A stretch of DNA of 46,984 nt from a virus, in UHGV virus genome UHGV-0142121. The stretch is one strand, 5' to 3'. Below, piece by piece: positions 199-46,984 of this stretch. The first letter of the stretch is position 1. The number at the start of each line of letters is the position of its first letter. The notes beneath the pieces are model-generated. The model was given only the letters and a program-made list of their open reading frames with translations. It did no database searches and had not been told where the DNA came from. A program made the translations under genes and the position numbers.

Positions 199-212
199 AA
201 TGAGGGGGGCAC

Positions 213-2114
213 ATGGCGAAGCTAGGCGATGGCGGAATTGGTAAAATCATCTCTGATTTGGTGGCGGACGTTGACGCTATCGAAGCGTCCGACATCCCAC
301 AGGGAGATAAGACACGAAAATATAAGGCTGCGGCTACACGTGTTAAAAACGCGCTATTTTTAGATAAAAGGAAGTTCCGTGGTAACGGTTTGAAGAAACG
401 CATTACAGCCAATACCTATAACGCGTATATGACCCGTATTCGTAAACAGTTCGACGACCGTTTGCACCATCACTTCACCAGCAGCATTGAAAAGTTAGCG
501 GCAAAATACCCCGCCTACAGTGCTGAATTACAGGCGTGGCAATCTATGCCTGCGGCAAATATTCGTCAGGCATACGGCAATCTACAGGGCCAACTGAAGG
601 AAATTATGCCGCTGGCGGAGGTGCTTTCGGGTATGAAGTTCGGACCGGCTGCGGAGAAAAAATTGACGCGCCTGGCAAAAAAATACCCTGCCTGGAGCAT
701 CTATCTTAACGCGTTGACCAGCCAAGACTGGAAGTCGGTCGAAACCGAAATGCATGCCGCGTTCCAACAGGGAACCCGCTTGTTGGATGATCTGAATGGC
801 CTGAAAATCAACCATGAAATTCTGTATCACCTGCAGTTGAGTCCGGCAGAACGCTCATCGATACAGCAGCGCTGGGGCGAGGTGCTCAGCGAGAAGAAAC
901 GGTCAACTGTACTCTTGGACTACCCCAAATATATGCAGGCTGTGACCGAGCAGATCTACAAGGCGTTTGAACCATCACTTATCACGCAACGTAAGGATAT
1001 GGCGCCGCTGGCGTTCGCGCTAGCAGCCGTATCCGGGCGTCGATTGATTGAGGTGATGGTTCAGGGAGAATTTGAGGTTACCGGCAAGTATGAAGTTATT
1101 TTCTACGGGCAGGCCAAAAAACGAACCGGCGAGGATAAGGGGCGTAAAATTTATGTGCTGTGCGACCCGGCTCTGTTCGTTCAACGTTTAAATGAACTGA
1201 GAAGTTGCCCCGCAGCGGCTGATTTTGACGAAATCAGATCTCTGTTGAACGATGATAGCTACCGGGCCGCAAATGTGCGCATCGCATCAATTCTTGGTAA
1301 CACATTTAACCAGCACGCGAAGCTGTTCTTCGGCGACGACCGCCGAACATTCAAAGACACGCGCGCGATTTATGCGCGTATCACCTATGAGGCGTTTTTC
1401 CGCTACGACCCGCGCTGGAAAAACGTTGATGAGGACGTCTTTTTCTCTGAAATCCTGGGGCATGACGACGAAAATACGCAGCTGCACTACAAACAGTTCA
1501 AACTGCATAATTTCTCACGCAGCTGGCGCCCGGAAACGGGGATTGAAAATAAGCGCCTCGCTGCTCTACAAGCGCTTGACGACCAAATGCCTGGCTTCGC
1601 CAGGGGCGATGCCGGTATCCGTATTCATGAAACAACAAAGCGGCTGGTGGAGGAATCAGCTGATATCGTCATCAACACAAAAATATTACGAGATGCTGGA
1701 TTTAACCCGACGCTAGTTCGCCGGTACCTTGATTTTGTTGCTGAGGCGCTGGCTATGAGCAGTACGATTAACAATGCAGATGCGCCCTCTATTGTCATAA
1801 CCTCTGACGAACTGGATGATGAAGACGACCTCGCTGGCGATAGCGGTGCCGATAGAGAGGAAACCAGTGACGATACCCAGGCGCTGGAAGCTGAAGAGGA
1901 AGGCCGAGAAGATGGCGTGACCGCCGAGGCCGAAGAGGAAAAACCAGTACCAATAGACACTCGTCCACGCTTCTCCGCGCCCGTTCGTAGTGACGACGGC
2001 AGCTGGACGATCCGTTTCAAATACAAGGGGCAGCTATACGCCTGGAGTGGCGCGGCGGATAGTATCAGCAGTGCCATGAAATCAGCATGGTTTGCGTATT
2101 TCCCAGAAAATTAA
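213..2114 (+). CDS. telN: Protelomerase (telomere resolvase) TelN, 633 aa
   Basis: Long stretches match my recollection of N15 TelN (RKFRGNGLKKRITANTYNAYM, MAPLAFALAAVSGRR, FFGDDRRTFKDTRAIYARI, acidic C-terminal tail); GAGGGGGG ribosome-binding site; sits beside the telomere palindrome. Confidence 0.9.
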   Translation: MAKLGDGGIGKIISDLVADVDAIEASDIPQGDKTRKYKAAATRVKNALFLDKRKFRGNGLKKRITANTYNAYMTRIRKQFDDRLHHHFTSSIEKLAAKYPAYSAELQAWQSMPAANIRQAYGNLQGQLKEIMPLAEVLSGMKFGPAAEKKLTRLAKKYPAWSIYLNALTSQDWKSVETEMHAAFQQGTRLLDDLNGLKINHEILYHLQLSPAERSSIQQRWGEVLSEKKRSTVLLDYPKYMQAVTEQIYKAFEPSLITQRKDMAPLAFALAAVSGRRLIEVMVQGEFEVTGKYEVIFYGQAKKRTGEDKGRKIYVLCDPALFVQRLNELRSCPAAADFDEIRSLLNDDSYRAANVRIASILGNTFNQHAKLFFGDDRRTFKDTRAIYARITYEAFFRYDPRWKNVDEDVFFSEILGHDDENTQLHYKQFKLHNFSRSWRPETGIENKRLAALQALDDQMPGFARGDAGIRIHETTKRLVEESADIVINTKILRDAGFNPTLVRRYLDFVAEALAMSSTINNADAPSIVITSDELDDEDDLAGDSGADREETSDDTQALEAEEEGREDGVTAEAEEEKPVPIDTRPRFSAPVRSDDGSWTIRFKYKGQLYAWSGAADSISSAMKSAWFAYFPEN

Positions 2115-3386: not shown

Positions 3387-6300
3387 TTAAACCGCCTGCA
3401 ACCGCTTCAGTTCGTTGTATTGGCCATCTGATAGTTGCCACATATTGTCAGCCATAAACAGCCCGGCAACCGTCGCCTGTATCAACCGTGGCGGCATAGT
3501 CGCCAGTTGTGCCAGTTCTTCCGGCGTCAGTGCGGTTCTCAGCCATGCAAATGGCACCGGCATCGCAGCGATAGCCTCTTCAATCGTCGTCAGCGTTGCC
3601 TCAATAAATGCCGTCTCAGCAGATCCAGATTGGGATCTTACATCTATATTTGATCGGCAATCGAGATCCGGTTCTTCCGGTGCCCCCACATCCAGTTTCA
3701 TCTGGACAAACGACAGTGATGCCTCGGCGCGACGCGCCAGAATTCCGTGAATGAATTCCCAGGATTCGGGGACGATTGACCACACGTAACCGAGGCCCTG
3801 TGAACGCGGTAGGCGGCGTTTTTGAGTCGCGTAACCGAATGCCTCACAGATCTGTTTGAAAACCGTCTCGGGGCGTTTCTGGCGGCCTTTAGGGTTTATA
3901 TAGCCACCGAACCGCAGGACGTTGTTGAAACGGTCCGCGGTGGTTGGGTCCATAAGTTTGGCCATAGCTTCCGCCATACCTTCCTGGCTGGCTTCACCGG
4001 CGCCGGTATCTGGGTTAATACCGCAGGTGGAGAAATACTCCCTGGCGGCCTTACGGTGCAGCGATGCGTACGTACGCTGGGTTACTTCCATCACCGGGCG
4101 GCTTTGGACGGTGTAGCCGGTTATTCCTGGCTGCATGCGGTCGAACTGCGCATCAGCTGCTTCGCGGTTGAGCGCGGTGATCGTTACAAATTCGTTACGC
4201 GGCCCTTTGCGGAATTGGTAGGTGAACGTGAAAGCCTGCTGCTCACGGTCAATGCGTGCGGCGGTCATTTCATCCATCGTCATCAGTTCGGCCAGCGTCA
4301 GTTTCTTCTTCCCGCCATCGAGCAGGAATTTCAGAGATTCCGGGCTGACATCCAGCATCAACTCTTTTTCGATATCCCAGCGCGCCAGTTGCGCCTGCTC
4401 ATCTTCAGATAGTGATCGCTTGCCCATCAGTTCGTCGCGTTCGTCTTCGTCCGGGGTTTCCACTTCCATATGGCGCAGAACGGTCATATCCCAGACCCGC
4501 TCTTTCGATGCCTTACGCAGTTCTTTGCCGGTTTCGCTGGCCAGCGAGTCTTCGGCCAAGTGGCTGACGTTATAGCCATCGGCGTAGAGAATGCAGATCA
4601 GGTTGTTGGCGAAATCGTTTCTGGCCTGGGCCTCCATCGCGGCAACTTTAAATTTCATGCGGACATAGGTGGTGTCCGCCAGACCAAGGGAAAGGCGGTC
4701 GCCATCCAGGATGGCGTCGGTAAATTCTTCGTTTATCTCGGCGGTTTCCAGCAGTGCCTGCAGGAACCCACGGCGGATGTTGTCGGCGTTCTCTTCGCGT
4801 ACGCCAGGCAGCTTGTTCAGGCCGACCATAAATTCGGTGGCGGTCCTGTCGCGGCGCAGCATCTGAATGGCGTCGGACGGCACTACCTGGCCGCAGAAGC
4901 AGCCGAAATGGCGGGTGAAGTGCCGTTCTTCGATCGAGACGCCAGAACTGATAGCCGGGCTATAAATCAGGCCATCGTAGAGTTTAGCGCGCTGGTTCGG
5001 CGCGTCGGTAAACGCCACGACTTCCTGATCCGGCTTTGTGTCCTGGCTGACGTAAAGCCATTTCTTTTCTGGCCAGCGGTCGCGCAGCTGCAGCAGCAAC
5101 TGTTCGGCAAAATTGGTTGAGTCGGTGGCCAGCAGGAATTTTTCGCCAGCGGCCACAGCTTTCAATACTTCAACCATTATGCGGTCGGTATCGGTGTAAA
5201 GCACGCGGCGCGCTTCGCGCGTACCGTCGACTTTTTTGTACTTCACATCAACCGGCAGCTCGATGACGTGGATCTGTGTCCAGGTCGACAGGCCGGTTTG
5301 TTCGCGTCTGGCCAGCGCCAGTTCGCAGAGGTCTACCAGGATATCGCTGGCGTCCGCATCAACCAGCAGTGCGTGGTCATCGCTGTACGCGATGGAGTCG
5401 ATAAGGCGATTGAACACATCAACCGGGTGCGCCATCGCTTTACCGGAAAGCGTAGCGCGCAGGCCCTGGGTAGCTTCATCCAGGCCAAAGAAATCGTGCT
5501 TGCGCATCAGCGGTTGCCAGCAGCCCTTCACGATTGAATTGATACAGATCGTCAGCTTGCTGGCATACGGCGCCAGTTCCTGATAGCCGGGGTCCTGATA
5601 GTGCAGGATATCGCAATTCATGCGGCGGCCATCGTCGGCACGCGTCATCATGTCCCAGAGGCCACCGATTAGCGAAACGCGGTGCGCAACCGAAACGCCA
5701 CGCTGCGCGCTGTGCATCATAGGGCGCAGCAGGTGCTTGGATTTGCCCGACCCCATGCCGGCACGGACTATTACCGGGCCATTCAGCGCTTTGATGTAAT
5801 CCAGCACGTCTTTGGTCATGTGCGGTGTATCGAACCGCTTATAGGTGATATGATCGGGGCGTATTGCCGGGTTCGTTACGCGCTCGCTGAATGATCGGAA
5901 AGCCTGGGCCTTGTCGCATTTCTGTTTGAAGGCGCGTTTAACGCGGTTATACACGGTACCGTGCAGCGCTTTGTCGGCGCCGAGCTGGTCCAGCTTCATT
6001 TTTATCAGCGAGATCAGCTCCTGCGGGGATAACTTGGACGGGCATTGCATCATGCCGGCATCAATGCAGCGTACCAGCTGGCGTGAGAACGCGCGGCGAT
6101 CGGAAACCGGCGCAACGGCCAGAGACAGCATTTCAGCATCAAAGGAATTGCCTGGCAGCTGCAGGCGGTTCTGTTTTGAAAACAGCTGGCGGTTAGTTTC
6201 GGTGGCACCACGCGCCAGGTGGAGATCGTTGAAATCGCTTAATTCAGTTTCGCTGCTGTCGAAAATCGGGAATGTGCAACGGACCTGCGGGAATTTCTTC

Positions 6301-7376
6301 ATCACGTCGATGCCGACTCTTAACCCGGTATTGCCCTTTCCATTACGGGCCGACTTCTGGTCGTTATCCAGTGCGCACCAGATTTCCATGCCTGGGTACA
6401 GGCTGACCAGCTGATCAACAACCTTGATAACGTTATTTGCTGACACAGCCACGACAACAGCGTCGAAGCGCTTTTTGGCAACGGCAAACACACTGGCGCC
6501 AGTCGCGAAGCCTTCAACAACGCAGATCCTGGTTGCGCCGCGCAGCTGGCCAATGATGTGGCACGAACCAGCAAAGTCACCGGAATCAACAGCGCGGGTC
6601 TGCAGCTTGTCGTTTCTCTCGGTGATTCGCTGCCAGCCAACAATCGGGCCAACGCGAGATTCCCTGTCTTCCCGGCGGTCATCAATATGAGACAGCGGGA
6701 TAGCCATAACAGTTTGTTTTTTAACCGTTTTAGAATTGGGACCATGGTCCCACTGGGTTACGCGCCTGACGTTGCAGTATGAGAAAATGGAGCTGATACC
6801 TTTCTTCACCGCGTATGGCCATGAACCATCTTCTGCCGGTGCGTTGGCGAATGCGGTGGAGAACTGCAGGTATTCGTTCAGGTCAGCGTCGCGGCGCTGC
6901 GACTCCATAAACACAGAGATAGCCTGCTGGCGTTCACGTTCCTGGCGGCGTGCCTCAGCACGTTTACGCTGTTCCAGCTCGCGCGCGGACAGTGGGACCA
7001 CGGTCCCACCGTTCTGTTCTTTGTACCGGCGATATTCGGCTATAAGGAACTGGAAACCACTCCAGGAGCCAGCGTCAGAGCCTTTACATACGAAGTTAAC
7101 AAACGGGTACTTGATGCCTTCCTGCGAACACTCCATGCGGGAGTAGATCTCAACCTTACCTTTCAGCTTTGGCTCAGTAACGGCAGGACCATGATGGGCG
7201 TACTTTGTGAATTTTTCGGCGGCACCGCGAGAGGCAGAAAGTTGAATATCACTGGCGCATTTATGCCAGTCGATGCCGGCAGCGCTCGCAAGATCACTCA
7301 ATTCATTTGATGCCGCGTCAAGCAGCGAAAACGGGTCAGAGTTAAATTTGTGTTGAAAAAAATCCGTTAATTTCAT
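3387..7376 (-). CDS. repA: Replication protein RepA (primase-helicase), about 1329 aa from ATG at 7376; track ORF extends to a TTG at 7388
   Basis: Size and architecture match N15 RepA; Walker A GMGSGKSK; GGTGA ribosome-binding site before the 7376 ATG. Confidence 0.88.
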   Translation of the reverse strand: MKLTDFFQHKFNSDPFSLLDAASNELSDLASAAGIDWHKCASDIQLSASRGAAEKFTKYAHHGPAVTEPKLKGKVEIYSRMECSQEGIKYPFVNFVCKGSDAGSWSGFQFLIAEYRRYKEQNGGTVVPLSARELEQRKRAEARRQERERQQAISVFMESQRRDADLNEYLQFSTAFANAPAEDGSWPYAVKKGISSIFSYCNVRRVTQWDHGPNSKTVKKQTVMAIPLSHIDDRREDRESRVGPIVGWQRITERNDKLQTRAVDSGDFAGSCHIIGQLRGATRICVVEGFATGASVFAVAKKRFDAVVVAVSANNVIKVVDQLVSLYPGMEIWCALDNDQKSARNGKGNTGLRVGIDVMKKFPQVRCTFPIFDSSETELSDFNDLHLARGATETNRQLFSKQNRLQLPGNSFDAEMLSLAVAPVSDRRAFSRQLVRCIDAGMMQCPSKLSPQELISLIKMKLDQLGADKALHGTVYNRVKRAFKQKCDKAQAFRSFSERVTNPAIRPDHITYKRFDTPHMTKDVLDYIKALNGPVIVRAGMGSGKSKHLLRPMMHSAQRGVSVAHRVSLIGGLWDMMTRADDGRRMNCDILHYQDPGYQELAPYASKLTICINSIVKGCWQPLMRKHDFFGLDEATQGLRATLSGKAMAHPVDVFNRLIDSIAYSDDHALLVDADASDILVDLCELALARREQTGLSTWTQIHVIELPVDVKYKKVDGTREARRVLYTDTDRIMVEVLKAVAAGEKFLLATDSTNFAEQLLLQLRDRWPEKKWLYVSQDTKPDQEVVAFTDAPNQRAKLYDGLIYSPAISSGVSIEERHFTRHFGCFCGQVVPSDAIQMLRRDRTATEFMVGLNKLPGVREENADNIRRGFLQALLETAEINEEFTDAILDGDRLSLGLADTTYVRMKFKVAAMEAQARNDFANNLICILYADGYNVSHLAEDSLASETGKELRKASKERVWDMTVLRHMEVETPDEDERDELMGKRSLSEDEQAQLARWDIEKELMLDVSPESLKFLLDGGKKKLTLAELMTMDEMTAARIDREQQAFTFTYQFRKGPRNEFVTITALNREAADAQFDRMQPGITGYTVQSRPVMEVTQRTYASLHRKAAREYFSTCGINPDTGAGEASQEGMAEAMAKLMDPTTADRFNNVLRFGGYINPKGRQKRPETVFKQICEAFGYATQKRRLPRSQGLGYVWSIVPESWEFIHGILARRAEASLSFVQMKLDVGAPEEPDLDCRSNIDVRSQSGSAETAFIEATLTTIEEAIAAMPVPFAWLRTALTPEELAQLATMPPRLIQATVAGLFMADNMWQLSDGQYNELKRLQAV
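6736..6753. repeat. sopC-like palindrome TTGGGACCATGGTCCCAC inside repA coding sequence
   Basis: Near-perfect 18-bp inverted repeat matching the dispersed family; encodes TQWDHGPN in RepA. Confidence 0.7.
7002..7019. repeat. sopC-like palindrome GTGGGACCACGGTCCCAC inside repA coding sequence
   Basis: Core TGGGACCACGGTCCCA, identical to the F sopC inverted repeat as I recall it; encodes GGTVVPL in RepA. Confidence 0.7.
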
Positions 7377-7405
7377 TATTTCACCCAAAAAAAGACGCTG
7401 CGCAG

Positions 7406-14079: not shown

Positions 14080-14619
14080 ATGACTGATGCCCAGTTAACA
14101 GACAAGCGCGCGCGCCTCCGCAAAGCCGCTCAAGACTATCAAACAGCATTATCTTGGTATCAAGAAAACCTCGATAACCCAAACGCGGAACAGGATTGCG
14201 ATGAGGCTGCGGCGGCGTTTAAGCGTGAGATAGCCTATCGAGAAATGGACATTATTTCTGACCTGCTGAATGAGATAGACGAGCTTCATGAACACCTGAA
14301 AGTAGTCGAGCCGGTTGGCGGTGATGAGCTTGACCATCTCATCTGGGGGCTGCAGCGCGAAGGATTCCATGCTCGCACGCTAGCTGCATTGGTAGAGCTA
14401 CGCGAGCGCCGGAAAAGTGACGCCGAATGCCGTTCAGCTGATAGCCTTCACGATCAGCTTTCTCGCCTGGCAACACATTCTGCAGAAGAAAGCGCCCAGA
14501 TGGCAGAATGGGATCGCCCTGCTCCGAAAAGCGCCCTTCGCCAGCAGGCTGAGAAAATTGCCGATGATGTGCAGGAACTAATTAAGCGTTTACCCGACGC
14601 AGATCAGGGGGGCGCATGA
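14080..14619 (+). CDS. Hypothetical protein, 179 aa, predicted helical and acidic
   Basis: GGGGAG ribosome-binding site; TAAATG coupling. Confidence 0.45.
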   Translation: MTDAQLTDKRARLRKAAQDYQTALSWYQENLDNPNAEQDCDEAAAAFKREIAYREMDIISDLLNEIDELHEHLKVVEPVGGDELDHLIWGLQREGFHARTLAALVELRERRKSDAECRSADSLHDQLSRLATHSAEESAQMAEWDRPAPKSALRQQAEKIADDVQELIKRLPDADQGGA

Positions 14620-14852
14620 TAGACCGGAATGTCGTATTGATAAACACATTGACGCGCCGAACAATGGCGAGCGTCACTGCCGGCGGTGATGGTTTCATTT
14701 CTACCGGCACGTTGTCGTTTGATGTTGGCCTGAATACCAGGACTATTCGTCGCATGCTCGATAGCGCAGTAGAGTCGGGCGAAGCTGAGCGCCGTTCTAA
14801 CGGGCCAGGCAAGCCATACAGCTATCGCATTCGGGAGGCGGCATGCTCTTAG
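14616..14852 (+). CDS. Hypothetical protein, 78 aa
   Basis: ATGA coupling; GGGGGG ribosome-binding site. Confidence 0.4.
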   Translation: MIDRNVVLINTLTRRTMASVTAGGDGFISTGTLSFDVGLNTRTIRRMLDSAVESGEAERRSNGPGKPYSYRIREAACS

Positions 14853-29847: not shown

Positions 29848-30321
29848 ATGGCTGACGAAAATATCAAATCCCCCTCGGAGTATGCATCTCTCCCGGCGGG
29901 TACCCGCGTGTCTTACGGCACAGTTGGCGCAACACTTGCAACGGCGAAGCTGTTGCAGTCGGCAACGGCCATCGGAGCCACAGGCAACAAAGGGACGTTT
30001 ATCGACGTTACCCGCCTGATTGATACCGAGCCGAAATATATGGCTGACATGGGCGAAGGCGAAGATAAAACACTGGTCTTTATTGATGACCCGGATGATG
30101 TCGCACAGCAGGCGCTGCTGGCCTCCGCTGATGCGAAAGAAACGGTCGTATTCTTCATGCAGTTCCCGAACCGCCGTCTGGCGGAGATTCAGCTCGTTCT
30201 TGCCGGCTGGAGCATGCAGACCGTAGATTCACCGAAAGGCAAGGTGCTGCAGCTGGAGGTTTACGGCAAGCAGAACAAACTGAAATGGACCGTTACTCCA
30301 GCTGATGCTGGCGGCGAATAA
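29848..30321 (+). CDS. Major tail tube protein, 157 aa
   Basis: Position immediately before the G/GT chaperone pair; GGAGA ribosome-binding site. Confidence 0.5.
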   Translation: MADENIKSPSEYASLPAGTRVSYGTVGATLATAKLLQSATAIGATGNKGTFIDVTRLIDTEPKYMADMGEGEDKTLVFIDDPDDVAQQALLASADAKETVVFFMQFPNRRLAEIQLVLAGWSMQTVDSPKGKVLQLEVYGKQNKLKWTVTPADAGGE

Positions 30322-30383
30322 CGCCATTTAATAGCTGACCCGGCCCGGCTTCCCTTCACTCATTCATCATCAGGATCATCGTC

Positions 30384-30728
30384 ATGAACTACAAATCCCT
30401 CACCACCCCATTGAATACAACGACTGAAAAGAAACTGCTTGGCCAGAAGGTATTTATCCGCCGCCTGACCAATACCGAGCTGGATAATTATACCGATGCA
30501 GTAGAAGCGGCCCAGAAGGAAGGGAAGTCCCCTCGACAGCTCTCAGTGATGGGGGTGAATTTATTCCTGCAGGCGTTGGTTAACGAAGACGGTAGCCGCC
30601 CTGGGAAGAAGGACCTTCCGACGGCGGAAGAACTGCTTGATGTTCATGCATCCGCTGATTTGCTGGAAGCCGTTACCCTGGTTCAGCGCCATTCCTACGG
30701 TACGCTTGAGGAAGCGGAAAAAAACTAA
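30384..30728 (+). CDS. Tail assembly chaperone G, 114 aa
   Basis: Position before tape measure; ends at slippery heptamer A-AAA-AAC (30719-30725). Confidence 0.6.
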   Translation: MNYKSLTTPLNTTTEKKLLGQKVFIRRLTNTELDNYTDAVEAAQKEGKSPRQLSVMGVNLFLQALVNEDGSRPGKKDLPTAEELLDVHASADLLEAVTLVQRHSYGTLEEAEKN

Positions 30729-30967
30729 CCGCCTCGCCCCGGCTTAGACTGCTGTTCACACTGGCAGACCGCTGGGGCGAGCCTGACCCGCGCAAACTTG
30801 GTGACCTGCCGGCAAATATTCTCACCCATTGGGAGGCGTATTTTAACCTCCTGAAGACTGAGACCGCCGGCGAGCCACCGCCATCATCACCGCAGCCTGC
30901 TGTTGCACCGTCTGAGGGCGCTCAGCAGTTCGCTGATTGTCTGAGGATCTTAGGAAATGGCTGCTGA
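30384..30967 (+). CDS. Tail assembly chaperone GT fusion via programmed -1 frameshift at 30719-30725
   Basis: The -1 frame is open from the slippery site to TGA at 30965-30967 (about 80 extra codons), overlapping the tape-measure start. Confidence 0.55.
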
Positions 30968-33935
30968 TGTTGCATCGTTGGCTGTTGCGCTTCACCTGAA
31001 CTCGGCCAGCTTCAAATCGCAGTTCGCTGATGCGATGCGGTCGGCTGACAGTGGGGCGCAACAGTTCAATAGAAAGGCGCAGGCGGATGCCAAAAATACC
31101 CGCCAGTCATACGAGGGAGTCAGCAAAGGGATCACCGGTCTCGATGCTGATTTTAACAAACTTGGCCGCACGGTTGATAAGCGTCTGACCGGGCTTGATG
31201 AGATGCGCGGCCTGCTGGCCAGCATCTCTGCCGGTAGTAACGTTGCCGGCAGTTCTATAGCAAACGCGCTGGTTACTTCGCTCAGCGAGGGTATGAGTAC
31301 CGCGCTATCAAACAGCGTGAATGGCCTGAAGAACCAGCGACAGGCCCAGATTGAGTTCACCGCGGCGCAGGTTGATGCGGCGCGCGGCGTAATTGAGAAC
31401 GCCAGGAGCCTCCGCGAAGAGGCCATCGCCAAACAGAACGCCGCGGTGAAAACTATTGAGGCGGCGAAGGCCGATCGTGAACGTGCATTCGCACTCGATG
31501 AGTATTACGCCAAACAGGCCGAGGTAAACAAACAGTTCGGGTTGACGGTTGATTATCAGGAAGAGCACGTTAAAAACTCGCGTGTGATTAATGAAGCCAA
31601 CCTGGCGGAAGCCAAAGGGAAAGGCAGCCTGGCAGAAGCGACAAAAGCCGTGCTGGCCGCCGATATTGCCGAATCCAACGGTAAGCAGCAGCTGGCCACA
31701 TCGACCCGTAATCTGGTGGTTGTCAGCCAGGAACTCTCGCTCGGCCAGCGTGCTGCTGCGACCAGCGCGGGTCTATTGCGTGGCGCGCTGGCGATGGTCG
31801 GCGGTCCTGTCGGCCTTGCCGTGATGGCGGCTGTCGGCGCTGGTACCGCTATTTATACCGCGTTCTCGCGCAGCCAGGCGGAGATCGACGGGTTCAATAA
31901 GGCGCTGCAGAAGTCCGGGCAGCAGTCCGTGATGAACGTGATGTACCTGCAGAACCTGGTTTCCCGTCTGGGCGATACCGCCGGTGCGGTTAAGTCGGTC
32001 ACTGCCGCTGTCGGTGCCGGGTTCGGCGGCGATATTCTGGATCAGGTGGCGGGGCTTGGCACCCGTATGGAAGAAATTGGCCAGAGTTCTGATGACCTGG
32101 TTACGCTGCTTTCCAGTCTCAGCGGCGACCCGCTGAACGCGCTGCAAAAGCTGACCGATCAGGGAATTTTGCTGAACAGCAGCATGGTCGATCAGATTGT
32201 TACCCTGAACCGCCAGGGGAAAACGACTGAGGCTACCGCGCTGCTGCAGCAGGCGGCCATGGATGACGTTTCCCAGAAGCTCAAAGAGCAGGAAAGCCAG
32301 GTCGGCGTGCTGGAAGGGGCGTGGAAGTCCCTGAAAGGGTTTGTTGCTGATGCTTTTAAGACCATGGGAGATGCGCACATAGCGACCGCCCAGGCGATGG
32401 CCGCTGGTGCCAATGTCGATCTGACGCCAACCGAAGACCCCGCCATCAAACAGCGTGAAGAAGCTGAAAAACTCTACCAGCAGCGGAAGAAAGAGCGAGA
32501 GGAACTGACGAAGCGCCTCAAGGATGAAAACACCCTTTCTGGCCTGATGAAAGCGGGCGTATCGCGCGAAAAAGAGCGAGCTGATGCTATCGCACTGGTT
32601 AACGCGAACTATACGAAAGGCACGGCGGAGTACACGCAGGCGATGGCTGGCGTGAACAAGATGTACGCCGAGCAGAAAAAAGCGCGTGAGAAAGCCTACA
32701 GCGATGATGCTGCCACTCGCCGCCTGCAGGAGCTGAAGCAGGAAGAGACGGTGCTGCGTACGCAGAACGACCAGACGGAAGAACTGACGAACAGCGAGCG
32801 TAAGCTGCTGCAGTTCAATCAGGAAGTTGCCGATCTGAAAGAAAAGCGCATCCTGACCGCTGGCCAGCGCAGTCTGCTGGCGCAGGAAACAGAGCTTCGT
32901 AACCAGCTGCAGATCAACGCCAGTCTGGACCGAGCCAACGCGCAGCGGAAAATCGGCCTGCAGATGCAGGAGAAGAACCAGGAACTGTACCGCTCAACCA
33001 TCCAGTTGCAGCAGGAGTACAGCAACCGGGTCGCGCAGATGACGATGAGTTCAACTGCATATGACCAGATGGTTGCAGAGCAGCAAGTTCGTGAACGATT
33101 TGCAAAACTGAGGGAAGAGCTTGATAAAACCGTAAGTGATCACGCTTCTGAACAGTATCGCCAACAAACGGAAGTATTACGCACTGAAGAGCAGAAGCAG
33201 TTCGATATTATTTTGAGCGGTGCTAAGCGAAAAAAAGAAGTGGAAGGCTCTTGGATTGACGGTATGAAAAGCGGGCTACAGGAGTGGCGTGAAGATGCTG
33301 AAAACCAGTTTGCTATGACGCGAGATATTGCAGTTAATGCGATGGACGGCATGAGCAATAGCATCTGGAATTTAGCCTCTAAAGGGAAGGCTGATGTTAA
33401 GTCATTTGCAGTTTCAGCTATCAATGATATCGGGCAGATGATTACCAAAATGCTGGTCATGAATGCGGTCAAATCAGGCGCATCTGCATTTGGCATAAGT
33501 AGCATGTTTGGCTGGGCAGATGGTGGCTATACAGGTGATGGTGGCAAGCATGATGTTGCCGGCGTCGTGCATAAGGGGGAATGGGTAGTACCTCAGAACG
33601 TCGTGCAAAAGCCTGGCATGCTGAATTTCCTGAACCAGCTGACATACGGCAGCGGGTATGCAGACGGTGGTTTAGTCGGTGGTAGCGTTGCCCGCCCGTC
33701 CAGCAATGAGGATGCCGGCAGCGATAATCGAAACATCCGCGTTACGGTCAACATCCCGCTGCAGGTGATTAAGCAGGGAGCCGCAGCAACTCAGCAATCA
33801 AAAGATCAGGGGAAAACGAGTGATGAAGCTCTAAGCCTCGAGGCGCTATCCCAGATTAAGCAGGTCTGCTATAGCGTGCTGGACCGTGAGTTATCGAATA
33901 ACGGCATGATCCTGAACGCAATCAAGGGGGCGTGA
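30957..33935 (+). CDS. Tail tape measure protein, 992 aa
   Basis: Long Ala/Gln-rich helical protein with Gly-rich C-terminal region, after G/GT. Confidence 0.85.
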   Translation: MAADVASLAVALHLNSASFKSQFADAMRSADSGAQQFNRKAQADAKNTRQSYEGVSKGITGLDADFNKLGRTVDKRLTGLDEMRGLLASISAGSNVAGSSIANALVTSLSEGMSTALSNSVNGLKNQRQAQIEFTAAQVDAARGVIENARSLREEAIAKQNAAVKTIEAAKADRERAFALDEYYAKQAEVNKQFGLTVDYQEEHVKNSRVINEANLAEAKGKGSLAEATKAVLAADIAESNGKQQLATSTRNLVVVSQELSLGQRAAATSAGLLRGALAMVGGPVGLAVMAAVGAGTAIYTAFSRSQAEIDGFNKALQKSGQQSVMNVMYLQNLVSRLGDTAGAVKSVTAAVGAGFGGDILDQVAGLGTRMEEIGQSSDDLVTLLSSLSGDPLNALQKLTDQGILLNSSMVDQIVTLNRQGKTTEATALLQQAAMDDVSQKLKEQESQVGVLEGAWKSLKGFVADAFKTMGDAHIATAQAMAAGANVDLTPTEDPAIKQREEAEKLYQQRKKEREELTKRLKDENTLSGLMKAGVSREKERADAIALVNANYTKGTAEYTQAMAGVNKMYAEQKKAREKAYSDDAATRRLQELKQEETVLRTQNDQTEELTNSERKLLQFNQEVADLKEKRILTAGQRSLLAQETELRNQLQINASLDRANAQRKIGLQMQEKNQELYRSTIQLQQEYSNRVAQMTMSSTAYDQMVAEQQVRERFAKLREELDKTVSDHASEQYRQQTEVLRTEEQKQFDIILSGAKRKKEVEGSWIDGMKSGLQEWREDAENQFAMTRDIAVNAMDGMSNSIWNLASKGKADVKSFAVSAINDIGQMITKMLVMNAVKSGASAFGISSMFGWADGGYTGDGGKHDVAGVVHKGEWVVPQNVVQKPGMLNFLNQLTYGSGYADGGLVGGSVARPSSNEDAGSDNRNIRVTVNIPLQVIKQGAAATQQSKDQGKTSDEALSLEALSQIKQVCYSVLDRELSNNGMILNAIKGA

Positions 33936-33937
33936 TA

Positions 33938-34285
33938 ATGGCGCTGGAAACATTCAACTGGTCGCCGAGGAATGGTCCCGTTGGTGACATTCAATTTCGT
34001 ACCCGGTCAGCGCAATATGGCGACGGTTACGAGCAGGTAACTGGCGACGGTATTAACTCCGAAACGCAGTCATGGCCACTGACGTTTGTCGGGTTAAATG
34101 AGGATATCCGCCCTATCCTGACTTTCCTCAGAGAGCATGGCGAAACGCGTGCGTTTAAGTGGGTCAACCCTCTGGGTGAGCTTGGGTTATATCGTGCCAC
34201 CCAGATAAAACCCACCGTGATGGATTTTGCTCGTATGTCGCTATCTGTTACGTTTGTGACGGCATTTCGCGCCGAATCATCATAG
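33938..34285 (+). CDS. Minor tail protein M, about 115 aa
   Basis: Resembles lambda gpM (RSAQYGDGYEQV vs RFGDGYSQR); AGGGGG ribosome-binding site. Confidence 0.65.
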   Translation: MALETFNWSPRNGPVGDIQFRTRSAQYGDGYEQVTGDGINSETQSWPLTFVGLNEDIRPILTFLREHGETRAFKWVNPLGELGLYRATQIKPTVMDFARMSLSVTFVTAFRAESS

Positions 34286-34293
34286 AGGGATAT

Positions 34294-34671
34294 ATGAAAG
34301 GACTATTTTCCGCACTTATTATGTGTATTGCATTAACTGGTTGTGTCCAACCTATGACAAAAGCTGAAGTTGATCGTGCAGTTTATGAACCGTTGCCTGC
34401 AGATTACCAAGAGCAAATAAAATCAACGATTGAGCTTAAGCTAAAAGATCCTGACTCTGCAAAATATCGGTTTTTCGACCCCAAAAAAGGATATACAGAG
34501 GGTACACGACACTTTGGCTTTGTAGTTCCCGTAGGTGTTAACGCAAAAAATAGCTATGGTGGATATACAGGTTATAAATTGTATTATTTCGTTTATTACA
34601 ACCAATCATTCAAGGATGTCACCGAAGGCGTAGCATGGGATGCAGTCAAATGGTCTGATGACGTCAAATAG
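34294..34671 (+). CDS. Lipoprotein, 125 aa, moron inserted between tail genes M and L
   Basis: Signal peptide with lipobox LTGC; AT-rich codons; own ribosome-binding site and own terminator. Confidence 0.6.
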   Translation: MKGLFSALIMCIALTGCVQPMTKAEVDRAVYEPLPADYQEQIKSTIELKLKDPDSAKYRFFDPKKGYTEGTRHFGFVVPVGVNAKNSYGGYTGYKLYYFVYYNQSFKDVTEGVAWDAVKWSDDVK

Positions 34672-34749: not shown

Positions 34750-35499
34750 ATGGGTATCGCAGCTGATGATCAGAAATTAGAACCCGGCAGCAAAATCGAA
34801 CTGTACGAGGTGGACGGCACTGCGTTCGGGGCCGAGGTGCTTTATTTCCATAACCACGCCATCCCGTACACCGCAGAAGAGATCCTCGCCGCCGGCGATG
34901 ATGCCAGCCTGCTGCCCGGTAAGCCTATTTTCTGGCAGGGCATACGCTACGATGCGTGGCCATGCCGGATTGAGGACATGGAATCGAACGGTGATGGCTC
35001 GCCGGCTACACCGAAATTATCGGTAGCCAACCTGGACGGCTCGATCTCTTCCCTGTGTGGCATGTTCCAGGACATGAAGCAGGCCAAGGTGACGGTTCAC
35101 CGGACCTACGCACATTATCTCGATGCGGAAAACTTCCCCGACGGCAACCCTGGCGCCGACCCGACCGCTGACAGCGTGGAGGTCTGGTACATCGACAGCA
35201 AGTCTGCGGAGAACGACACCACTGTCCAGTTCAAATTATCCTCGCCGGTCGATGTGACCGGGCAGAAGCTACCGGGCCGCCAGATGCTGAGCCGTTGCGC
35301 CTGGTGCCTGCAGGGCCAATACCGTGGCGCCGACTGTGGCTATACCGGAACAAATTACTTCGACAAATTTGGCAACCGGGTCGACAACCCGGCGAAAGAT
35401 GAATGTCCCGGCACCGTAGCCGGCTGCAAATTGCGCTGGGGCGAAAACTCAGAGCTGCCGTTCGGCGGCTACCCGGCCATTGCACTGATAAGGATGTAA
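34750..35499 (+). CDS. Minor tail protein L, 249 aa
   Basis: Lambda gpL-like C-terminal Cys cluster (CAWCLQG...CGYTG...CPGTVAGCKLRWG). Confidence 0.75.
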   Translation: MGIAADDQKLEPGSKIELYEVDGTAFGAEVLYFHNHAIPYTAEEILAAGDDASLLPGKPIFWQGIRYDAWPCRIEDMESNGDGSPATPKLSVANLDGSISSLCGMFQDMKQAKVTVHRTYAHYLDAENFPDGNPGADPTADSVEVWYIDSKSAENDTTVQFKLSSPVDVTGQKLPGRQMLSRCAWCLQGQYRGADCGYTGTNYFDKFGNRVDNPAKDECPGTVAGCKLRWGENSELPFGGYPAIALIRM

Positions 35500-43438: not shown

Positions 43439-44620
43439 TCAAAGGACGTAGCGCTTTGCTATTTCGTTACCTATTTTTTGAATCCGCTGGTCTTCAGTGG
43501 TTTCATCATTTAGTACGGTTCTGGCGAACGGGATTAGGGCCAGAATTTCGTTGGCGGGGATATCGTATTTCAAGCCTGTCGCCGCGGCGCGGATGTAGTT
43601 GGTCACATCATTAATTTCTAAAAATGCCTCATCCACTACCTTACCAACCGATTTTTGCTGTTCGGCCTGGTGAGCTTCCAGTAGTTCTTCAATCCTCTGT
43701 ACTAACGCTGGCGATACGTTGCTAAGTTGGAAGGATACAGAATCCCCCTTGTACTTCGCTTTCATCCCTTTACCAAACAGGCGCTCACGCACTGCAGGTT
43801 TTACTGGCTTTTGCGCTACCTGGTGCAGCTGGTCAAGAATGTCATCAGTTTCGAGCTGTTCACCAGCGCGCTTGCGCTTGGCCAGATGCTGCGCAAACGC
43901 AAACATTGCATCTTCATTCTCGGCATAGACTTTTGCCAGTGCCTCACCAGCTCTGGCGCTCAGCTCGTTAGGGTTACGGAAAAGGCCAATGATTTCGCGT
44001 GGTAGCTCTGCCGTCTTCATGCAGCGGACGATAATTTTTCGGGAGATATTCTCCGCTTCGGCCAGCTTACTGACGGTACCACCGAACTCATTAGCCAGGC
44101 GGCGAGCATAGCGTTTTCCGCGTTCGTAAGAGCTGGTCTGCCGGTAGTCGTTCCCGATCTGTGATAGCCAGGCCATTTGTTCGTCGTCCAGCTCGCCGAC
44201 GAGAACGCGGTATTCAGAGCTGGTGTAAATGGCTGTCTGGCGGCGGCGGCTACCGTCGGCCACTTCAATGATGCCAGAAATTTTGCGGCCAAAAGCTGGG
44301 TTTTGTTGCCCGGATGCGAGGAATGATGGGATCAGGTCATCCAGGGCGTCTTTTGTCAGTAGAGCCTGGTCCCGCTCGTTGCCGCCCCATACCATGGTCG
44401 CCTTTTCCACCATGTTTGCATCGACGGTTTCCAGCTTAAACGACACATCCCGCCCACAGACCGGAAGGGTGATATGGTTCCCGGTCATCCCGCGGACGCG
44501 TTCGCTTAGGTTTGCCACCGCCGGCGCCGCTGGTTTATGCGCTTCATCATGTCGTGGGACCGCGGTCACAGTGTCCAGATTAATTTGCGGAGCGTTTTTC
44601 ATTACAGGCGCGCGTTTCAT
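43439..44620 (-). CDS. sopB: Partition protein SopB (ParB family), about 393 aa from ATG 44620
   Basis: N-terminal 230 aa closely match my recollection of F SopB (ITLPVCGRDV, NERDQ, DALDDLIPSF, RVLVGELDDEQMA, AENISRKII); start overlaps sopA stop (ATGA). Confidence 0.85.
   Translation of the reverse strand: MKRAPVMKNAPQINLDTVTAVPRHDEAHKPAAPAVANLSERVRGMTGNHITLPVCGRDVSFKLETVDANMVEKATMVWGGNERDQALLTKDALDDLIPSFLASGQQNPAFGRKISGIIEVADGSRRRQTAIYTSSEYRVLVGELDDEQMAWLSQIGNDYRQTSSYERGKRYARRLANEFGGTVSKLAEAENISRKIIVRCMKTAELPREIIGLFRNPNELSARAGEALAKVYAENEDAMFAFAQHLAKRKRAGEQLETDDILDQLHQVAQKPVKPAVRERLFGKGMKAKYKGDSVSFQLSNVSPALVQRIEELLEAHQAEQQKSVGKVVDEAFLEINDVTNYIRAAATGLKYDIPANEILALIPFARTVLNDETTEDQRIQKIGNEIAKRYVL
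44555..44570. repeat. Degenerate sopC-like site TGGGACCGCGGTCACA inside sopB 5' coding region (one mismatch)
   Basis: 15 of 16 match to the palindrome core. Confidence 0.3.
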
Positions 44621-45828
44621 TTGTTGTTCTCCCAGCGAGTAGCAATCAGGCGGTCGTAAATTTCCCGGCAAACAGGTTCCCAGATAGCGACAGCATTGCG
44701 CCATGCTGTAGGGGTGCTGCGTTGGTTTGCAGCCTGCTCAAACACGGTGCGCATGCGTACCTGGCCCTTACCTACTTCGTCGGTTACGCGGACAACCTCC
44801 TTCAGCACCATCCCGCCCCAGGCGTTGCGGATCTGTTCATCCATCCAGGCAGATTGGTTGCCGACGGCCGTGCTGTATTTAGTTACCAGAACGCGGACAT
44901 CAGGTTCAAAGCCACCAAGGTCCACGTTGGCCATCAGGTCGCGAAGCATTGTGAAGAACTGAAGAGAGGAAACGTAGTCATACAGTTCAGCTGGTGTAGG
45001 TACAACGATCACATCTGCTGCGCATACGACGTTTATTGTGCCGATGCCGAGGTTTGGTGCGCTATCAATGACAATCAGGTCGTAGCTATCCCAGACAGAC
45101 TCGATAGCGGCGCGCAGAAGCAGGTGAGATGCCACCGGCAAGCGGCCTTCTTTCTCCAGTACCTCGATCTCTGATTCGATGCGGTGAATGGCCAGGCAGG
45201 ACGGGATGATATCGAGGTTCGGCCAGCAGGTAGGCTTAATCGCGTATTCAGCGTTATCACGTTCGCCCAGGTAGTACGGCAGCAGCGTATCGTCTGCGTG
45301 GATATGCAGATCAGGGACGTAGCCGTGGTACAAGCTGGCGGTTGCTTGCGGGTCAGTCGCATCAATCAGCAGAACGCGAAGGCCCTGCAGTGCAGCCCAT
45401 TGAGCCATATGTACGCTGGTCGATGTTTTGTATGCGCCACCTTTATGCGCGGCAATAGCCAACACAACAGGCGATTGGCCTTCCGGACGAGACGGGCGGG
45501 TACCAAAGTGATCGCGCATAGAGTTGATTTGCTCGATGGTATAGCCGGCACGTTGTGGAACGCGACCGCGAGTCACCATATCAGCCGGCGGCAGTCGCCC
45601 ACCATCTTCTGCATTGCGAATAGATTGCGGTGTAACACCGATCAGTTCTGCCGCTTCAGTAATGCCCCAGCGACGAGTGATGGCGCGAGACTCTGGGCTA
45701 TCATCACCAAATTGAGCCTGCGCGATAGCCATTGTCATGGCATGGCCACGAGAAATCAGTTCATCCAAACGCGATTTTAAATTCACTTTCGTACTCTCCG
45801 GTAACTTTGCGTAAAAATAGTAAAACAC
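44617..45828 (-). CDS. sopA: Partition ATPase SopA (ParA family); probable start at GTG 45786 (389 aa) rather than the track start at 45828
   Basis: Near-collinear with my recollection of F SopA (AHKGGxYKTS Walker A, IIPSCLA, VIDSAPNLGIGTINVVCAADV, EPVCxEIxDRLI); GGAGAG ribosome-binding site before the 45786 GTG; CTTTGC-like motifs upstream. Confidence 0.85.
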   Translation of the reverse strand: MFYYFYAKLPESTKVNLKSRLDELISRGHAMTMAIAQAQFGDDSPESRAITRRWGITEAAELIGVTPQSIRNAEDGGRLPPADMVTRGRVPQRAGYTIEQINSMRDHFGTRPSRPEGQSPVVLAIAAHKGGAYKTSTSVHMAQWAALQGLRVLLIDATDPQATASLYHGYVPDLHIHADDTLLPYYLGERDNAEYAIKPTCWPNLDIIPSCLAIHRIESEIEVLEKEGRLPVASHLLLRAAIESVWDSYDLIVIDSAPNLGIGTINVVCAADVIVVPTPAELYDYVSSLQFFTMLRDLMANVDLGGFEPDVRVLVTKYSTAVGNQSAWMDEQIRNAWGGMVLKEVVRVTDEVGKGQVRMRTVFEQAANQRSTPTAWRNAVAIWEPVCREIYDRLIATRWENNK

Positions 45829-46746: not shown

Positions 46747-46916
46747 CGTAACAAAATACGAATTTGAATTACAATAATTGAACACACTACCACGCCAATA
46801 AAATGACCAACCATAAAACCAATAGAACCTAATCAAACAAAATCATCGTAACACAATCTACAATTAATCATCGTAACAACATCCGAATGAATTAGCAGGG
46901 TGTATCATATCGTAAC
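46747..46916. promoter_or_regulatory. Telomere-flanking repeat array, right arm: ATCGTAAC at 46845, 46870, 46909 and CGTAAC at 46747, in AT-rich non-coding DNA
   Basis: Reverse complement of the GTTACGAT repeats next to the left telomere. Confidence 0.5.
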
Positions 46917-46930
46917 AATTATTGAATGAT

Positions 46931-46984
46931 TAACAGAACACATTATTAAATATACGCGCGTATATTTAATAATGTGTTCTGTTA
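46931..46984. repeat. Hairpin telomere, right end: 54-nt perfect palindrome (apex between 46957 and 46958)
   Basis: Reverse complement of 46931-46957 equals 46958-46984; shares the 40-nt core with the left-end palindrome, outer 7 nt differ. Confidence 0.85.

Follow-up and report, generated by a model that had tools for sequence, protein, structure and literature searches.

The G/GT-type tail assembly chaperone recoding cassette of long-tailed phages is reportedly the class described by Xu, Hendrix & Duda in 2004. In phage lambda, the two genes lie between the major tail and tape-measure genes; a short, abundant product is translated from the zero frame of G, and a rarer fusion, made at a ratio of about one GT per 30 G, arises by a −1 shift near the end of G into T, which has no initiation of its own. 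To our knowledge, no 3' hairpin stimulator has been established for the lambda site. Phage phiKO2 has a joined CDS for gp13/gp14 (NC_005857.1, 8490-9097) that is noted as a "putative programmed frameshift," and equivalent sites are present, unannotated, in Yersinia phage PY54 and Escherichia phage Fostie. Such G-T frameshifting is widespread, and in lambda the fusion binds the tape measure protein through its G part and the tube protein through its T part (PMC5009743).

The phage analyzed here is a new relative of phiKO2. Its genome (UHGV-0142121; 46,984 nt), referred to below as the window, is that of an N15-like telomere phage, as are those of phiKO2 and PY54, and a megablast search of complete E. 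coli genomes with the region gave no match. On the plus strand, the tail module runs in the order tube, G, T, tape measure, with the overlapping G and T frames directly between the tube and tape-measure genes. The major tail (tube) protein gene (29848..30321), the upstream neighbor of G, was identified by Pfam Phage_TTP_13 (E=8.7e-32) and by PHROG 158 ("major tail protein"), and the downstream tape measure protein gene (30957..33935) was identified by Pfam TMP_4, Tape_meas_lam_C, and TMP_2 and by phrog_24 (E=2.4e-121). G itself (30384..30728) encodes a 114-aa tail assembly chaperone that matches Pfam Phage_TAC_14 (PF16462; E=9.5e-19, 67.9 bits, cut-off 22.1) as well as phrog_25875 (E=6.8e-30) and phrog_344, two families labeled "tail assembly chaperone." An AGGA motif lies 9 nt upstream of the G ATG, and identical starts for G and the tape-measure gene are annotated in the closest public relative, Enterobacter asburiae plasmid pJBIWA007_2 (NZ_CP074156.1), that of G by PGAP. 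No plus-strand terminator-like site was found between the tube gene and G (30322-30383), where one is annotated in phiKO2.

The zero-frame codons that close G are GAA (30717-30719), AAA (30720-30722), AAC (30723-30725), and the stop codon TAA (30726-30728); the heptamer A_AAA_AAC (30719-30725), the predicted −1 shift site, is therefore correctly phased as X_XXY_YYZ, and the stop follows it immediately. An initial annotation, which had G ending at this slippery heptamer, was thus borne out. Following a TGA at 30707-30709, the −1 frame stays open from 30710 to 30967, and the overlap between the G and T frames is only 19 nt (30710-30728), with the heptamer inside it. The initial annotation had put the open −1 frame at about 80 further codons and had allowed that a stop might have been miscounted; there are exactly 80 uninterrupted sense codons after the slip (30725-30964), followed by a TGA at 30965-30967, so that the T extension occupies 30725..30967. 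The same annotation erred in stating that this TGA overlaps the tape-measure start codon: the ATG is at 30957-30959, the TGA lies 6 nt 3' of it, and 11 nt are shared by the two ORFs. The ATG within the string TGATG (30967-30969) is not in the frame of the tape-measure ORF. No ATG, GTG, or TTG occurs in the T frame from 30710 to 30967, and T could therefore be expressed only as the C-terminal part of a predicted GT fusion (30384..30967) of 194 aa and 21.3 kDa, compared with 12.7 kDa for G.

Several lines of evidence indicate that the T frame encodes protein. When the fused GT sequence was searched, its residues 6-178 aligned with positions 8-178 of the 195-position phrog_25875 profile (E=1.3e-54), spanning the predicted junction, and T alone matched phrog_14748 (E=3.8e-28). 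The dN/dS ratio of the T frame was 0.14-0.37; the −1 frame is under purifying selection. In T, about 40 conserved N-terminal residues are followed by a linker rich in Pro, Ser, and Ala and by a C-terminal motif that is also conserved. Searches of Pfam and NCBIfam with T or GT gave no family match, nor did a sequence search of the PDB give any match.

Conservation of the site was assessed in 145 related loci, which represent 75 unique contexts; 63 loci were reached through G peptides and 80 were reached independently through a T-domain motif, and the heptamer and the adjoining stop were invariant in both sets. The heptamer AAAAAAC with a stop at the junction was kept in 145/145 loci and in 75/75 unique contexts, counts that are not independent events, since the loci share ancestry and were found by means of peptide motifs; the G proteins in these loci have diverged to approximately 35 to 50% identity. 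All 75 unique contexts have the stop T[AG]A immediately 3' of the heptamer (UAA in 48, UGA in 27, and UAG in 0), and in 59 of them the next base is C. Position 7 of the heptamer is C throughout, even though T in its place would alter the protein in neither frame. The codon that precedes AAA varies (GAA, ACA, AAA, GCA, GTA, or CAA, encoding E, T, K, A, V, or Q), with A always as its third base, and the length of the A run ranges from 6 to 8. Upstream, an SD-like GAGGA motif (30708..30712), read from the sequence, lies 6 to 7 nt 5' of the heptamer; relatives have GAGGA in 57/75 and GAAGA in 16/75 unique contexts, and because the motif varies, it is not a conserved component. A role as a 5' stimulator is possible but unproven, and the motif is closer to the heptamer than the dnaX optimum.

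The closest correspondence is with the phiKO2-type loci. The window shares with phiKO2 and PY54 an identical 15-mer slip cassette, GCGGAAAAAAACTAA (GAA-AAA-AAC-TAA), and it shares with the phiKO2-type loci the order tube, G, T, tape measure, a −1 extension of about 80 codons, the T N-terminal motif SPxLxLxFxLADRWGEPDP, and the 3' helix CUCGCCC/GGGCGAG. Identity to the phiKO2-type and PY54 loci, taken over the best tblastn segment, is approximately 45 to 48% for G; for T it is 44 to 49%. The differences are in detail: T ends in QQFADCLRILGNGC in the window but in QCAAVMRALM in most relatives and ECAAVMRALM in phiKO2; the T stop overlaps the tape-measure gene by the 11 nt noted above rather than by the 4-nt ATGA of phiKO2-type loci; and the stem of the 3' helix reaches 11 bp in the window, which has C:G where the phiKO2-type stem has U:G.

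This helix belongs to a candidate frameshift stimulator, a conserved and covarying 3' hairpin (30733..30781) that, together with the invariant stop adjoining the heptamer, adds to the account given by the initial annotation. Its 5' arm (30733-30743; CUCGCCCCGGC) pairs with its 3' arm (30771-30781; GCUGGGGCGAG), and it begins 7 nt 3' of the heptamer in the window and 6 to 9 nt 3' of it in relatives. The typical spacer of 3' stimulators is 5 to 9 nt (PMC5009743). The statistics that can be drawn from the window alone are modest: the MFE fold, which contains the hairpin, has an energy of −34.1 kcal/mol (z=−1.93 against dinucleotide shuffles, with 9/200 shuffles as stable), and comparison of the hairpin with synonymous recodings gave a z of −1.69 (p ~0.06). 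Among relatives, the core helix was present in the MFE fold of 42 of 43 unique sequences and missing in one from Plesiomonas (L017). Covariation was seen at synonymous positions, for example, at 31:73 (GC33/AU20/GU16), 34:70 (CG46/GC26), and 37:67 (GC/UA/CG); 90% of hairpin alignment cells were paired, compared with 37 to 50% in slid controls, and the native fold was more stable than synonymous recodings in 20/20 sequences. A search of Rfam gave no match for the hairpin and no DnaX match. We regard the hairpin as a likely 3' frameshift stimulator. The hairpin sequence also encodes the most conserved motif of the T domain (SP...DRWGE).

The resemblance to lambda is one of arrangement, and the inferred roles would be equal, with the G part directed to the tape measure protein and the T part to the tube protein. 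The sites themselves differ: the slippery sequence is G_GGA_AAG in lambda and A_AAA_AAC in the window, the stop of G lies 15 nt 3' of the heptamer in lambda but immediately adjoins it here, T is 144 aa long in lambda compared with 80 aa, and the site in the window has a covarying 3' hairpin. The lambda proteins fall into Pfam Phage_TAC_2 (PF06894) and Phage_tail_T (PF06223) and into TIGR01715, whereas the window G hits only Phage_TAC_14 and its T has no Pfam family. Alignment with lambda G/GT had been proposed as a check in the initial annotation; the proteins proved to be analogues and not members of the lambda G/T sequence families. The window G showed no significant similarity to lambda G (BLASTP E=18; hhalign with a 25-sequence G profile, E=0.31), and the BLASTP comparison of the two T proteins gave an E value of 0.26. 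A weak hhalign match (E=0.013, probability 3%) placed T residues 7-41 on lambda T residues 6-41 in the same register, which is suggestive of distant T homology to lambda T. When relatives of lambda T were sought in viral contigs, 80 loci were found, all of them 100% identical to lambda T.

A further comparison is with E. coli dnaX (A_AAA_AAG). Like the window site, dnaX has an A-rich heptamer that tRNA-Lys decodes in the P site, with a stable stem-loop 6 to 7 nt downstream. A GAGG is also present upstream of the heptamer in the window; it lies at 6 to 7 nt, compared with about 10 nt for the SD-like element of dnaX, and is replaced by GAAGA in the 16 relatives already mentioned. The last base of the heptamer is C in the window, with tRNA-Asn, a far weaker shifter in E. 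coli, in the A site, and is G in dnaX. Frameshifting would give a longer product here and gives a shorter one in dnaX, and the expected efficiency is a few per cent compared with about 50%.

We consider it very probable that a −1 frameshift of the G/GT type at A_AAA_AAC yields the predicted GT fusion, and, as judged from sequence, the site appears to be an ordinary, real recoding site of a known kind. The basis in hand is the geometry of the sequence, family membership, conservation, covariation, and coding selection on the −1 frame. The description of the locus in the initial annotation as the conserved G/GT recoding device of long-tailed phages is likewise supported by synteny, the TAC family, the in-phase heptamer, the startless −1 ORF, dN/dS, the PHROG match, and the phiKO2 site; all traits of the device that sequence can test are present. 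From this evidence we infer that a GT fusion protein is made and at what level, that the hairpin and the stop stimulate the shift, and which partners G and T bind. The majority of ribosomes would translate G and terminate at the TAA, and a minority would slip one base backward and read on in the −1 frame. At the slip, tRNA-Lys (P site, on AAA) and tRNA-Asn (A site, on AAC) would both re-pair on AAA-AAA, and 80 more codons (CUA ACC GCC ...) would then be read to give the 194-aa product, with the predicted junction ...EEAEK-N-LTASPR.... The GC-rich hairpin probably promotes the shift, its 7-nt spacing corresponding to the mRNA entrance of the ribosome during decoding of the heptamer, and the slowly decoded stop that adjoins the heptamer may help. 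By analogy with lambda, the tape measure protein would carry a coat of many G copies and of the G part of GT, tube protein would be brought in by the T part and polymerize to the measured length, and neither G nor GT would remain in the virion. Since enterobacterial ribosomes shift only weakly at A_AAA_AAC, GT is expected in low yield, as in lambda; in E. coli, this heptamer is far less shift-prone than A_AAA_AAG (PMC5009743).

The adjacent stop raises the question of which tRNAs slip. It may act as a "shifty stop" pause, in which case peptidyl-tRNA-Asn, paired with AAC in the P site while the stop occupies the A site, would slip alone to AAA during slow termination and CUA would be read next; this is a subvariant of tandem slippage and does not exclude it, since the ribosomal −1 shift and its product would be identical. 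The adjoining UAA or UGA in every unique context, never UAG, favors such single-tRNA slippage, as does the C that usually follows, a stop plus C being a weak termination context in E. coli. However, the first A of the heptamer is kept across six different preceding codons, and since that base matters only if the P-site tRNA-Lys re-pairs, its conservation points to tandem slippage; the position of the stop also finds a simple explanation in the need for G to end near the slip site. The two routes give the same protein and so are not separable by sequence, but we regard slippage of a single tRNA as rather unlikely, even though stops beside shift sites are known stimulators (PMC5009743). Slippage of RNA polymerase is very unlikely. 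It would add one A on the A7 run (30718-30724) in some mRNAs and would place K rather than N at the junction (...EEAEK-K-LTASPR...). The window does carry seven A's, and transcriptional slippage at A/T runs is a known bacterial route to such fusions, but efficient slippage in bacteria involves runs of about nine (PMC5009743), longer than the A7 run here and the A6 to A8 runs of relatives. Furthermore, the heptamer is kept where there are only six A's (ACA, GCA, or GTA before AAA-AAC), which means that it is the X_XXY_YYZ pattern, and not the length of the run, that is conserved, and transcriptional slippage would predict neither the invariant C at position 7 nor a covarying hairpin at a ribosomal spacing of 7 nt.

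That there is no recoding at all, with a chance heptamer and with 30729-30956 as a noncoding spacer or a separately initiated small gene, is scarcely credible. By itself the heptamer is nothing unusual: the window contains AAAAAAC 11 times, compared with 7.3 ± 2.5 expected, and in-phase XXXYYYZ heptamers are common, with 52 in the 19,837 codons of the window ORFs (0.26%). By our arithmetic, any in-phase heptamer would fall by chance within the 19-nt overlap, which offers four in-phase positions, with a probability of approximately 1.6%. The absence of recoding would also fit the blank that PGAP leaves in the equivalent region of NZ_CP074156.1; however, this gap arises because there is no NCBIfam model for the chaperone family. 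A lack of recoding is difficult to reconcile with a heptamer fixed at its exact position in all 145 loci despite the divergence of G, with the dN/dS of the −1 frame and its matches to two PHROG families, and with a T frame that lacks any ATG, GTG, or TTG. For the G/T site, it is the comparative evidence that is decisive.

Whether these elements form a unit is a broader issue. It can be envisioned that A_AAA_AAC, the adjacent stop, and the covarying GC-rich hairpin constitute one dedicated, conserved cassette, absent from Rfam and common to a large group of enterobacterial siphovirus tail modules, in which RNA structure and slow termination would raise a weak site to the required GT:G ratio; we give this proposal an even chance. 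Since the hairpin encodes the conserved T motif, RNA and protein would constrain each other under such an arrangement. The proposed range of the cassette takes in phiKO2/PY54-type telomere phages and many Serratia, Xenorhabdus, Photorhabdus, and Klebsiella prophages.

For annotation, the consequence is practical. The GT fusion is missed by automated pipelines: the record of pJBIWA007_2 lists G as a "hypothetical protein" and has nothing annotated in the T region. The invariant AAAAAAC-T[AG]A, when the helix CUCNCCN...NGGNGAG follows it, is a simple mark by which GT can be annotated across this large phage group. The scientific value of the site is modest, and existing knowledge of G/GT recoding is unchanged; nevertheless, the 75 unique variants make it a well-sampled natural case in which a covarying 3' hairpin and a neighboring stop accompany a weak bacterial −1 site, and these variants could serve in tests of how the chaperone ratio is set by phages.

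Across the window, a −1 frame open for 150 nt or more beyond the zero-frame stop follows just three in-phase heptamers, the G/T site included. One of the other two (6716-6722, minus strand) lies in a spurious ORF within a replication gene, and its open −1 frame is that gene's own frame. The other, G_GGG_GGC at 14607-14613, has a 79-codon −1 extension and was considered as a second recoding site; the downstream ORF has its own ATG, which overlaps the upstream stop (ATGA), and the arrangement is one of ordinary translational coupling.

The tail assembly chaperone gene G (30384 to 30728, plus strand; 114 aa, 12.7 kDa; Phage_TAC_14, E=9.5e-19) lies between the genes for a tail tube protein upstream (29848 to 30321, plus strand; Phage_TTP_13, E=8.7e-32) and a tape measure protein downstream (30957 to 33935, plus strand; TMP_4, Tape_meas_lam_C, and TMP_2). 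As the initial annotation had proposed, G ends at a slippery heptamer, A_AAA_AAC (30719 to 30725); the zero-frame codons are GAA AAA AAC TAA, and the heptamer has the phase required for tandem -1 slippage. A TGA at 30707 to 30709 interrupts the -1 frame, which then stays open from 30710 until a second TGA at 30965 to 30967; the overlap that joins the two frames is only 19 nt long and contains the heptamer. The first codon after the slip would be CUA (30725 to 30727), and translation of the extension, T, gave exactly 80 sense codons, in agreement with the estimate of about 80, for a predicted GT fusion of 194 aa (21.3 kDa). Because ATG, GTG, and TTG codons are all absent from the T frame, T has no independent translation. 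The T stop was also said to overlap the tape measure start codon, which is inaccurate: the tape measure ORF starts at the ATG at 30957 to 30959 (plus strand), overlaps the T ORF by 11 nt, and has the T stop 6 nt 3' of its ATG, and the ATG that shares one base with the TGA (30967 to 30969) is out of frame with it. The closest annotated relative has an identical T/tape measure arrangement and tape measure start. We conclude that the site is real and is an ordinary recoding feature of the G/GT type.

Taken alone, the heptamer is unremarkable: AAAAAAC occurs 11 times in the window (7.3 ± 2.5 expected), and there are 52 in-phase XXXYYYZ heptamers in its 19,837 ORF codons. When the -1 frame was required to extend at least 150 nt past the zero-frame stop, three in-phase heptamers passed, the G/T site among them; one of the three lies inside a spurious ORF within a replication gene. 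Recoding was rejected for the remaining one, G_GGG_GGC at 14607 to 14613, 3 nt before the stop of the ORF at 14080 to 14619, where the -1 frame is open for 79 codons. Because this -1 ORF (14616 to 14852) starts at its own ATG, which overlaps the upstream stop as ATGA, the arrangement is ordinary translational coupling, and we used it as a negative control in assessing the G/T site. In our reading, the question of chance is decided by comparative evidence from relatives.

A search with G peptides yielded 14 genome and 46 viral loci, and a search with the T-domain motif LA[DE][RQH][WLF]GExD, in which the slip site is not involved, gave 80 further viral loci; with the closest plasmid relative, NZ_CP074156.1, there were 145 loci representing 75 unique 95-nt contexts. 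The G proteins of these relatives fall into 25 clusters at <75% identity. Both the junction AAAAAAC and a T[AG]A triplet directly 3' of it were kept in 75/75 unique contexts, in which the third-codon positions around the heptamer vary freely. The first A comes from a GAA, ACA, AAA, GCA, GTA, or CAA codon (E, T, K, A, V, or Q), whose third-position A is constant; the A run is 6 to 8 nt long, and the final C is invariant, a change from C to T being silent in both frames (AAC to AAU, Asn; CUR to UUR, Leu). Selection on an X_XXY_YYZ shift site would be expected to leave this pattern; selection on the protein sequence or on homopolymer length would not. One of the 145 loci (L113; IMGVR_UViG_647000312_000002, approximately 1495 to 1501) has one A fewer (GCGG-AAAAAAC), with the upstream G frame off register; a sequencing error in the homopolymer, or else a recent mutation, probably accounts for the missing A.

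The nearest public record, Enterobacter asburiae plasmid pJBIWA007_2 (NZ_CP074156.1; approximately 74% nucleotide identity), has an identical heptamer in the context ACA AAA AAC TAA. At its corresponding locus (L064, 2502 to 3074), the PGAP annotation lists the homologue of G as "hypothetical protein" and has no feature in the 228-nt T region. The slip site is unannotated there because no NCBIfam model exists; a search of NCBIfam gave no model matches for G, T, or GT. In a distant blastn comparison with phage records, similarity clustered at the slip site and the beginning of T, and the matches included Klebsiella phage phiKO2, Yersinia phage PY54, and Escherichia phage Fostie, which have in common GCGGAAAAAAACTAA and a -1 extension of 78 to 80 codons. 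phiKO2 has the same cassette as the window, and its record joins gp13 and gp14 into one CDS ("putative programmed frameshift from Gp13"); in PY54 and Fostie, G is annotated and T is not.

Between the window and six relatives, the dN/dS ratio of the T frame was 0.14 to 0.37 (dS, 1.0 to 1.9), on which basis we regard the -1 frame as coding. The T domain begins with approximately 40 conserved residues (SPxLxLxFxLADRWGEPDPRKIxxLPxxxLxHWxAYF), continues through a linker that is variable and rich in Pro, Ser, and Ala, and ends in a conserved C-terminal motif. Among PHROGs, G alone matched phrog_25875 ("tail assembly chaperone") at profile positions 7 to 114 of 195, the T extension matched positions 116 to 187 of the same profile as well as phrog_14748 (E=3.8e-28), and the match of the fused GT to phrog_25875 spanned the junction (E=1.3e-54); annotated fusion proteins were evidently the source of this profile. 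The last 12 or so residues of T (30920 to 30967) are conserved family-wide (L001 to L144). They read QCAAVMRALM in most relatives, in which the T stop and the tape measure start overlap as ATGA, and QQFADCLRILGNGC in the window and its nearest relatives, with the 11-nt overlap; this conservation may reflect a binding motif, the tape measure ribosome-binding region in the same bases, or both.

The initial annotation left unmentioned an 11-bp hairpin on the plus strand, in which 30733 to 30743 (CUCGCCCCGGC) can pair with 30771 to 30781 (GCUGGGGCGAG), 7 nt after the heptamer; the usual spacer of 3' frameshift stimulators is 5 to 9 nt (PMC5009743). For the window alone, the hairpin statistics are modest: it is in the minimum free energy (MFE) structure of a 102-nt fold (-34.1 kcal/mol; z=-1.93 against dinucleotide shuffles) and in a 75-nt fold (-29.8 kcal/mol), and comparison with synonymous recodings gave a z of -1.69 (p about 0.06). 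The hairpin is also present in NZ_CP074156.1. Of 43 unique relatives, 42 have the core helix, starting 6 to 9 nt past the heptamer, in their MFE structure, the exception being a Plesiomonas MAG; RNAalifold also recovered this helix. In 20/20 sequences, recoding the peptide with synonymous codons gave RNA less stable than the native one (native z, -0.8 to -3.2). Pair counting gave 84.6% paired cells in 39 sequences (36 to 49% with a slid partner) and 90.3% in the 75 unique sequences (37 to 50% slid). The covariation score was not equaled in any of 500 shuffles for the 39 sequences and was 0.338 for the 75 (shuffle maximum, 0.214), counts that overstate independent events because the sequences are related; at one hairpin pair, at least two G:C to A:U events were independent. 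Compensatory changes fall mainly at synonymous positions: a Ser third base pairs with a Gly third base (G:C 33, A:U 20, G:U 16), a Pro third base pairs with the third base of a W/F/L/H codon (C:G 46, G:C 26), and the synonymous third base of an Arg codon follows a nonsynonymous change opposite (G:C, U:A, C:G). A compensatory swap of GGC/GCU to AUC/GAU separates the window from its closest relative. An Rfam search of the region gave no family matches. The conserved hairpin and adjacent stop are a modest addition, possibly undescribed before.

Tandem -1 slippage on A_AAA_AAC is the best-supported reading. tRNA-Lys in the P site and tRNA-Asn in the A site would slip together, the hairpin at the mRNA entrance would promote the slip, and the adjacent stop codon would possibly aid it. 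A_AAA_AAC is far less shift-prone than A_AAA_AAG in Escherichia coli, and lambda makes G and GT at approximately 30:1 (PMC5009743); a weak heptamer fits a device that delivers a minor product. GAGG at 30708 to 30711 could act as a Shine-Dalgarno-like 5' stimulator, but we left it out of the device because it is absent from 16 of the 75 relatives and only 7 nt from the heptamer.

Transcriptional slippage on the A7 run would give EKK-LTASPR in place of EKN-LTASPR. We disfavor this explanation, since the heptamer is kept in relatives with just six A's, conservation extends to the final C and the downstream hairpin, and efficient bacterial cases have been described for runs of approximately 9. Single-tRNA slippage at a "shifty stop" is a possible alternative that would yield the same protein as tandem slippage; the conserved first A favors the tandem event. 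That no recoding occurs at the junction is excluded for practical purposes by the conservation of the slip site in relatives and the coding evidence for the T frame.

Every defining feature of the G/GT recoding device of long-tailed phages that can be tested in sequence was found here. Functionally, the site is of this type. The proposed alignment with lambda G/GT placed its proteins outside the lambda sequence families: the models for lambda G (PF06894) and lambda T (PF06223/TIGR01715) had no matches in G, T, or GT of the window, and BLASTP (G, E=18; T, E=0.26) and hhalign (G, E=0.31) against lambda were not significant. The first 35 or so residues of T align weakly with those of lambda T at an equal distance from the junction (E=0.013), which hints that the two may be distantly homologous. 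The window differs from lambda in its heptamer, its shorter T, its hairpin, and its G stop, which directly follows the heptamer but lies 15 nt after it in lambda. The architecture is like that of E. coli dnaX, although the window heptamer is weaker and the outcome is opposite, the frameshift in the window lengthening the product. In lambda, the tape measure is the binding partner of G and of the G portion of GT, and the T portion engages the tube protein and initiates its polymerization (PMC5009743); by analogy, we infer that the window proteins would function likewise. The window is a new relative carrying a known kind of G/GT site.

The window appears to be the complete sequence of a linear plasmid prophage of the N15/phiKO2 kind. 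Along with HK97-type head genes and lambda-like tail genes, it carries a protelomerase gene (213 to 2111, plus strand; TelK N, muzzle, catalytic, and stirrup domains), a gene for a 1,333-aa Toprim replication protein (3390 to 7388, minus strand), and SopB-HTH and ParA-type partition genes (43442 to 44704 and 44620 to 45828, minus strand; SopB/ParA-like), the gene set of an N15/phiKO2/PY54-like telomere phage. Its ends (1 to 54 and 46931 to 46984) are perfect 54-bp palindromes centered on TATACGCG|CGCGTATA (AAACGACACACATTATTAAATATACGCG|CGCGTATATTTAATAATGTGTGTCGTTT and TAACAGAACACATTATTAAATATACGCG|CGCGTATATTTAATAATGTGTTCTGTTA; inner 44 nt identical). They look like sequencing or assembly read-through of covalently closed hairpin telomeres, and the window would therefore be the whole linear plasmid prophage. 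The palindrome center, TATACGCGCGTATA, resembles the N15 telO core. The octamer GTTACGAT occurs in at least four copies at 76 to 200 (plus strand), immediately internal to the left telomere and upstream of the protelomerase gene, and its complement, ATCGTAAC, occurs in at least three copies at approximately 46845 to 46925, immediately internal to the right telomere. Both sets of repeats may have an operator or centromere-like role. Between the gpM-like (33932 to 34285) and gpL-like (34750 to 35499) minor tail genes is a 125-aa ORF (34294 to 34671, plus strand), which had no match in a Pfam search. It has a lipoprotein-type signal (MKGLFSALIMCIALTGC...) and may be a moron or encode a superinfection-exclusion lipoprotein.
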